This document shows, one piece after another, positions 26,210 through 26,596 of a stretch of 64,000 nucleotides of DNA (position 1 is the first letter of the stretch; the number at the start of each line of letters is the position of its first letter). A program made the translations under genes and the position numbers. Origin of the DNA: Escherichia coli (GTDB lineage: Bacteria; Pseudomonadota; Gammaproteobacteria; Enterobacterales; Enterobacteriaceae); NCBI RefSeq assembly GCF_001677475.2, contig NZ_CP015229.1; one strand, given 5' to 3'. A model generated the notes under the pieces. It was not told the DNA's origin. It ran no database searches and saw only the letters and a list, made by a program, of their open reading frames with translations.

Positions 26210-26596
26210 GCAGATTTTGCGCGGGTCTTATAGTCCCTCACAACAGAGTAAATAAAATTGACTTGGTTACAGAGTAACCAAACCGGAGATTTCCGGTTTG
26301 CTCAAAAAATGACAATGAGTTACGCCCCTAACCTAAGTAATCCTTACATTCACTGCATCATCACCATGATGGTGACGCAGCCCACCAACAACCATAACGA
26401 CTTCCGTTACGGTTGATGCTTTTACCCCATTGGGGGGGGACATCCACCAGCTTGATAACGGATAACAGGGAGTCATAACGGTTAAAATTGTATACTTTTG
26501 CAGCAAACATTTTTAGCTACACGTTAAGCTATACGATTATGGATTAAAATTTTTTGACTTCAATTAAATCAAATAGTTACACACACGTTTTGAATA

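Follow-up and report, generated by a model that had tools for sequence, protein, structure and literature searches.

The gene-free right end of an Escherichia coli phage satellite: an integrase arm beside a rare hairpin-bearing non-coding block

The stretch at positions 26258-26596 of the window (the whole 64,000 nucleotides of Escherichia coli DNA that we analyzed) is the gene-free right end of a phage satellite. It is best explained, in our view and with moderate confidence, as two unrelated modules, an integrase arm next to the attachment site and a rare non-coding block of the cargo region, whose hairpins would serve as a weak terminator when read on the minus strand. Taken as a whole, the tail is an ordinary island end. 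The first-pass annotation of the window had described a structured non-coding tail before attR, and this description is borne out by the results below.

The core genes of the window are 98.5% identical to the reference collection of E. coli. The satellite, an EcCICFT073-like phage-inducible chromosomal island (PICI), occupies positions 15602-26613, where it is inserted in a tRNA-Pro gene and adjoins yejO. The integration target, tRNA-Pro (GGG), was located by ARAGORN and by the Rfam tRNA model at 15540-15616 on the plus strand. The longest substring common to the attL and attR sides is the 17-bp repeat CTCTCGTGCCGACCAAA, with one copy inside tRNA-Pro at 15602-15618 (the attL core) and a second at 26597-26613 on the plus strand (the attR core), confirming that the flagged stretch ends where attR begins. 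The repeat consists of the last 15 bases of tRNA-Pro and the two bases after the gene, so that attR duplicates the tRNA 3' end, and the span between the two copies is 11,012 bp. A stem-loop followed by a T-run at 15655-15687, directly after tRNA-Pro, is supplied by the island and takes the place of the original terminator, which has been displaced beyond attR to 26621-26651. Outside the island, between the original proL site and yejO, the chromosome carries a bidirectional terminator at 26621-26651.

The gene content agrees with this assignment. A tyrosine integrase with an N-terminal arm-DNA-binding domain is encoded at 15807-17066 on the plus strand (Pfam PF00589, PF22022 and PF13356), and the last gene ahead of the tail encodes a PerC-family regulator (25750-26052, plus strand; Pfam PF06069 and RefSeq annotation of relatives). 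The island further encodes a repressor-like protein, a D5-type primase, AlpA (PF05930), a conserved 93-aa ORF and homologues of the lambda capsid protein gpE and decoration protein gpD. Eleven P4-type TGTTCACC iterons in both orientations, located directly after the primase gene at 21220-21465, are the island's own replication origin. The real cos of the island is of the lambda type and lies on the plus strand at 24140-24183, upstream of a Nu1-like terS homologue (24305-24859; Pfam Phage_Nu1, PHROG 57). It comprises a cosQ-like sequence and an exact cosN, GGGCGGCGACCT, at 24172-24183, both called by comparison with the lambda cos sequence. Downstream of cosN the sequence diverges from lambda, and a long imperfect inverted repeat at 24209-24295, which gave spurious miRNA matches in Rfam, is probably a satellite-specific cosB. 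No sequence match to the small-terminase homologue was detected in the PDB, and hence none to a solved Rpp structure if one has been deposited; the island may rely on a TerS of its own in place of an adaptor of the Rpp type. The layout corresponds to the published design for Gram-negative PICIs of the EcCICFT073 type (PMC6092414, PMC6739421). As far as sequence features can define the class, the element as a whole is such a PICI: its size falls within ~10-15 kb, the integrase is at one end, att repeats flank it, AlpA is present, a primase/replication gene is followed by an iteron origin, and a helper-type cos (cosQ, cosN) is joined to a divergent cosB.

Half of the flagged stretch belongs to the attR-proximal module at 26441-26613, which is an integrase-specific arm derived from attP together with the attR core. 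In lambda-type systems, the N-terminal domain of the integrase binds arm-type sites on both attP arms, and in lambda the int-distal arm has sites for the excisionase as well. The island integrase contains the corresponding arm-binding domain (PF13356, E=4.5e-23). The motif TTAGYTAYACG was matched 11 times in the window as compared to 2.3 expected, a number reached in 0 of 100 shuffles, and six of the matches are located at the two island ends. A pattern search placed four candidate integrase arm-type sites, TTAGTTATACG, at 15739-15792 between attL and int, two of them direct and two inverted. Another two candidates, TTAGCTACACG and TAAGCTATACG, are found on the attR side at 26513-26535 on the plus strand. 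The tail also contains two exact ATAACGGNTAA repeats, spaced 20 bp apart and absent elsewhere in the island (ATAACGGATAA and ATAACGGTTAA, 26455-26485, plus strand), which are candidate sites for excisionase/AlpA or another accessory protein. Similarly spaced repeats were seen in L019 and L027, which are satellites with other arms (relative loci are labelled L001, L002 and so on; the comparison set for the tail comprised E. coli genomes, viral contigs and metagenome contigs). The arm starts with an exact Chi octamer on the minus strand at 26444-26451, read as CCACCAGC on the plus strand, and this box occupies the same position in satellites with different arms.

The distribution of the module among relatives follows the integration site. 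Segment 26441-26596 was found at 90-97% identity in L001, L003, L021, L022, L042, L043 and L045, where it adjoins yejO wherever the locus reaches far enough, and it is present in every examined island at the proL-yejO locus, whatever stands to its left. The contigs of L042 and L043 reach the left end, and their int region is 87-88% identical to that of this island. In satellites at tqsA, caiT and other sites, the segment is replaced by other arm repeats. The island thus combines an arm-type DNA-binding domain in the integrase, candidate arm-type sites on both sides of the core and distinct from it, and an arm that co-varies with the integrase type; by those properties that can be read from the DNA, the attR-proximal half is an arm of the lambda type. 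By analogy, the N-terminal domain of the integrase would bind the TTAGYTAYACG sites in the tail and beside int, and an accessory protein such as the excisionase AlpA would probably use the two ATAACGGNTAA repeats. Integrase and accessory protein on the arm would then build an excision/integration complex, as in lambda-type systems.

The other part of the tail is unrelated to the arm. Segment 26053-26214 follows perC and contains a (GGCT)n tetranucleotide repeat at 26164-26209, present in ~12 copies here and in 2 to ~17 copies among relatives, which is a possible slippage-variable element; it stands immediately upstream of the promoter-like sequence TGGGCA-16-TATAGT (26207-26234). The repeat is followed by a rare conserved non-coding block at 26215-26440, which holds two hairpins, a palindrome, a further stem and a CCCC/GGGG hairpin. 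Positions 26215-26420 are 94-98% identical in 23 copies (13 unique sequences) from different satellites, and the block occurs together with perC in some of these and without perC in L019, L021 and L022. At a coverage of at least 80%, it is present in 30 of 5,426 complete E. coli genomes (~0.6%), and it is never annotated. The block was identified in 6 contigs in one metagenome scan and was not found in 100,044 species representatives in two scans; viral contigs are mostly trimmed at perC. The alignment across related islands proposed by the first-pass annotation therefore yields conservation, but no more of it than in perC, which is conserved at 98-99%, and the hairpin segment is the most variable part of the block (90-98%). 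Extra purifying selection on the block was considered and not seen, and the identity of 94-98% may simply reflect recent spread.

The block is itself composite. A 48-bp element at 26389-26436, which contains stem 4 and the CCCC-ATT-GGGG hairpin, recurs with 98% identity in the tails of capsid-forming PICIs (cf-PICIs). In cf-PICIs at tqsA, caiT and other sites this element is located upstream of the integrase-specific repeats, and in L002 and L017 it lies ~300 bp ahead of attR. Relatives at the same locus as our island have ~670 bp more between the 48-bp element and the arm. This insert (L001 2700-3380; L043 12590-14350; L015 3190-4462) contains three TTGCGGGTTA iterons, an AT-rich stretch and three inverted TAACCCGC iterons, and looks like a second origin. 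Some relatives carry a two-gene plus-strand cargo after the insert that is toxin-antitoxin-like, the first gene resembling SocA/Panacea by eye. The short arrangement of this window was found in no other genome of the collection. The tail here is a short recombinant form without cargo that lacks the ~670 bp of its relatives, and the block is part of the variable cargo region that extends from cos to attR; this region is rich in Chi sites and palindromes and is reshuffled by homologous recombination. The block fits no described family and is closest to the unannotated tails that other E. coli satellites carry. Our search of the PICI and satellite literature returned no description of this non-coding tail, a search for the block sequences themselves found nothing, and one on PICIs, satellites and non-coding RNA found no satellite RNA at this position.

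Other satellite tails have structures of their own. Repeated units were observed in L002 (3590-4330), L003 (5069-5500) and L017 (2640-3334) and at 25215-25337 of the window, each with a conserved linear motif of approximately CTGATATTTTCGGAAAC, a short variable hairpin with an AATT-type centre and then GGCCGG; such tails have more than 10 palindromes in ~500 bp. A P1-type immunity module is present in L019 at 7631-8294; it comprises two genes for C4 antisense RNA, one RNA resembling isrK and a c4 target element. The island of the window has no equivalent of this module, and the C4/isrK genes of L019 are far from its tail.

All the elements that the first-pass annotation had listed in the stretch, namely two adjacent hairpins, a palindrome, a G8 tract and a 35-codon ORF lacking a Shine-Dalgarno sequence, were recovered at their positions. 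Hairpin 1, TTGGTTAC-AGA-GTAACCAA (26263-26281, minus strand), has a stem of 8 bp, or of 11 bp counting two G·U pairs on the minus strand, and is followed on that strand by AATTTTATTT, which gives it the appearance of a weak terminator-like element. Hairpin 2, AACCGGA-GATT-TCCGGTT (26281-26298, minus strand), extends to a 9-bp stem CAAACCGGA/TCCGGTTTG at 26279-26300 and has 3 nt in common with hairpin 1. The palindrome TCACCATGATGGTGA at 26361-26375 extends to stem 3, CATCACCAT-G-ATGGTGACG (26359-26377, minus strand), in which an A·C mismatch of the plus strand is a G·U pair on the minus strand. Our analysis adds to these a 10-bp stem 4 (26390-26399/26405-26414) and the hairpin CCCC-ATT-GGGG (26425-26435), which had gone unmentioned, as had the integrase-arm nature of the attR-proximal half. 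The 3' arm of the latter hairpin is the G8 run at 26432-26439. This run sits exactly at the junction of the short form and is G4-G5 or interrupted in other copies; it is the expanded 3' arm of a small junction hairpin and not a conserved feature.

The hairpins exceed chance. Perfect stems of at least 8 nt number three in 26258-26596 as compared to 0.05 expected from 2,000 dinucleotide shuffles (P=0.002), and those of at least 7 nt number five as compared to 0.17 expected from dinucleotide shuffles. The folding z-scores of 26230-26445 are -4.8 for the plus strand and -5.6 for the minus strand. Among the 13 unique copies, the percentages of canonical pairs on the minus and plus strands are 97 and 95% for stem 1, 97 and 82% for stem 2, 100 and 93% for stem 3, and 96 and 80% for stem 4. 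The states that depart from Watson-Crick pairing comprise 11 that wobble on the minus strand, 4 that wobble on the plus strand and 2 that are broken on both (one-sided binomial p=0.059). The asymmetry of 11 versus 4 is not significant, and strand-biased mutation or template switching in the palindromes could produce it. In hairpin 1, the pair 26269/26275 shows a compensatory change from A-T to G-C in L001, L047, L052 and L053, and a single-sided change in L056, where 26275 is C and 26269 stays A, so that the pair reads A·C on the plus and U·G on the minus strand. The compensatory change, too, could stem from template switching within a DNA palindrome. Folding on the minus strand is nevertheless plausible because of the compensatory change, the lean of the G·U pairs toward this strand and the weak U-run.

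In a lenient terminator scan, the only terminator-like reading of the hairpins was on the minus strand, and this reading is conserved in L001. The first-pass annotation had noted this resemblance to a minus-strand terminator. The stem is AT-rich, the U-run is interrupted and starts only after AA, and the d'Aubenton-Carafa score, by a rough hand estimate, is negative, so that we regard the putative terminator as weak. Hairpins 1 and 2 belong to no protein gene, cos site, origin or known sRNA. Most likely, they act in single-stranded nucleic acid read on the minus strand. Their most economical role would be that of a weak antisense terminator or 3'-end structure, an insulator that would halt antisense transcripts coming into the island across attR.

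A dedicated sRNA gene on the minus strand is conceivable, but we consider it unlikely. Such an RNA would initiate close to attR or within the block, adopt stems 4, 3, 2 and 1, terminate at the U-run that follows hairpin 1 (~26255) and control genes of the island or the host. Consistent with it are the terminator-like hairpin with AAUUUUAUUU, a U6 run immediately ahead of hairpin 2 when the minus strand is read, the better pairing of the four stems on this strand with 11 versus 4 wobble states, the compensatory pair and the z-score of -5.6. There is also a promoter-like sequence, TTGAAG-16-CATAAT, at 26563-26536. However, promoter-like sites in the region are at chance level (two found, 1.9 expected), and this sole minus-strand site lies inside the integrase arm, a module that is exchanged independently of the block. 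A start at this site would give a transcript of ~270 nt here and of ~940 nt in relatives with the 670-bp insert, a difference of ~670 nt. No minus-strand promoter-like site was found within the block by the promoter scan, with L001 compared, so that the block has no conserved internal promoter, and Rfam returned no matching RNA family in the tail either at E <=1 or at the gathering score. Neither a promoter conserved together with the RNA nor membership of a described RNA family was thus observed. The hairpin segment is moreover the least conserved part of a block that occurs in only ~0.6% of genomes and in none of the species representatives. Of the sRNA proposal in the first-pass annotation, the terminator-like reading on the minus strand and the better pairing on that strand (p=0.059) find support; an RNA family, a promoter above chance level and extra conservation did not emerge.

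The structures could instead act on the plus strand, either as the perC 3' UTR or, after excision and circularisation, as a leader that reads across attP into int and so couples int expression to excision. By gene order, the tail is followed by int in the circular form, no plus-strand terminator comes after perC until the chromosomal one at 26621-26651, the promoter-like TGGGCA-16-TATAGT (26207-26234) is also present in L001, and the plus-strand folding z-score of -4.8 points to structure on this strand as well. However, the -35 and -10 elements are not kept in L019, L022, L042, L046 and L054, the hairpins have no U-run after them on the plus strand, and the stem mismatches are mostly A·C on this strand. 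We therefore consider action on the plus strand improbable and retain the weak minus-strand terminator as the preferred role of the hairpins.

A coding function of the stretch is very improbable. The 35-codon ATG ORF on the plus strand (26309-26416) is intact in most copies of the block, and its last 8 codons (NHNDFRYG) are common to an annotated 52-aa ORF in cf-PICI tails; a 49-codon ORF on the minus strand (26361-26510) has a C-terminus similar to the terminal part of a truncated KilA-N gene found in L018. The plus-strand ORF, however, lacks a Shine-Dalgarno sequence, and an inserted C (+1) in L021, L044 and L049 shifts its frame and leads to a stop after 7 codons. A protein search gave only 21 near-identical clusters, in which the C-termini are frameshifted, read-through or replaced, and in the minus-strand frames, whose length ranges from 38 to 98 codons, no start codon is conserved. 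Frame, start codon and ribosome-binding site are thus not conserved among relatives. Given the frameshift seen in relatives, the 35-codon ORF is no gene and is judged to be spurious, in agreement with the non-coding status given to the tail. Coding was rejected on either strand, given the frameshifts, the drifting C-termini and the missing conserved minus-strand start. The stretch was also considered as the remnant 3' end of a minus-strand KilA-N gene and dismissed, since the C-terminus shared with L018 appears to stem from read-through over a recombination junction rather than from common ancestry.

That the tail serves as a replication origin or as another packaging site (cos2) is hardly credible. 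The idea draws on EcCICFT073, which was reported with two cos sites (PMC6739421, PMC6092414), and on the longer tail of relatives, with its iterons and AT-rich, origin-like structure. No cosN-like sequence was found in 26053-26613, however: the sole exact cosN is the one at 24172, ~2 kb upstream of the tail, and the tail has no similarity to any phage-database record. A nicking sequence of the cosN type shared with a helper phage is thus absent from the tail, and a second cos was rejected. An origin in the tail was rejected too. The island has its own origin at 21220-21465, the origin-like insert of relatives is absent here, and TTGCGGGTTA iterons do not occur in the tail, the lone match in the island, with one mismatch, being at 15652 near attL.

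Three further identities for the palindromic sequences were tried and rejected. Neither palindrome has another copy in the 64 kb with up to 3 mismatches allowed, as a repeated repressor operator should. No terminal inverted repeats of the kind expected of a MITE were seen in the block by eye. The core of integron attC sites is GTTRRRY; the GTTGAT of the block is unlike it, and no IntI gene is present.

The island is rich in Chi. The octamer (GCTGGTGG, both orientations) is present in 11 copies in the 11-kb island (1.0 per kb) as compared to 15 copies in the 53 kb of flanks (0.28 per kb), and 0.34 copies would be expected in the island from its composition. The copies are located at positions 16987, 17349, 18046, 18546, 18733, 19337, 20894, 21774, 21800, 25299 and 26444, the last being the box at the start of the arm, where CCACCAGC is the complement of Chi. 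The block contains a mutated Chi, CCACCAAC, at 26382-26389 on the minus strand, which is exact (CCACCAGC) in all 12 other unique copies and in 22 of the 23 block copies. Other satellites have 0.6-1.8 Chi per kb, and the tails of relatives have ~3 per kb. No paper on Chi enrichment in PICIs was found in a literature search. Satellite accessory genes are located between the packaging site and the island end and are diversified by lateral transduction and recombination (PMC12829572). The Chi enrichment would fit both such diversification of a cargo slot and the mosaic breakpoints observed here, and it suggests how satellite cargo regions are reshuffled after transduction.

These results fix the right boundary of the PICI and assign half of a previously unannotated stretch to the integrase arm, and they remove a spurious ORF as well as a supposed structural curiosity, the G8 run. 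The hairpin-dense, Chi-rich tails of PICIs and cf-PICIs, with their shared 48-bp core, could conceivably be a functional module rather than debris, but we regard this as rather unlikely. Such a module could take the form of a structured minus-strand RNA or a single-stranded DNA element, or of an arrangement of palindromes and Chi that shields the linear DNA of satellites against RecBCD and promotes the exchange of cargo. Should the folding signal on the minus strand prove real, the cargo slot of satellites would hold a common non-coding element. Only the Chi enrichment and the shared 48-bp element might merit further work.

Compared with known systems, the block has in common with Rho-independent terminators and the 3' stem-loops of enterobacterial sRNAs the tandem stem-loops on the minus strand, the U-rich run after them and the internal U6. 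It differs from them in that the stem is AT-rich, the U-run is interrupted and begins after AA, and a promoter of its own and an Rfam family are lacking. The tails of cf-PICIs share with this tail the 48-bp element, many short palindromes and a Chi box, followed by integrase-specific repeats ahead of attR; outside the 48 bp the sequences are unrelated, and hairpins 1 and 2, like the palindrome, are confined to the perC-type block. The resemblance to EcCICFT073-type PICIs (Fillol-Salom et al. 2018, 2019) extends over the whole element, including the size of ~11 kb, int, AlpA, PerC, the primase-type replication gene with its adjacent iteron origin, the gpE-like and gpD-like homologues, and the lambda-like cosQ/cosN with a divergent cosB region. 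This island differs from them in having a full Nu1-family TerS homologue, and from EcCICFT073 itself in that only one exact cosN was found. The attR-proximal half, finally, finds its counterpart in the attP arms of lambda-type, tRNA-targeting tyrosine integrases. The order and spacing of the candidate sites differ from lambda in this island, but it shares with these systems an arm-binding domain in the integrase, repeated arm-type motifs that flank a 17-bp core within the 3' end of a tRNA gene, and spaced direct repeats in the int-distal arm, where lambda has its Xis sites.
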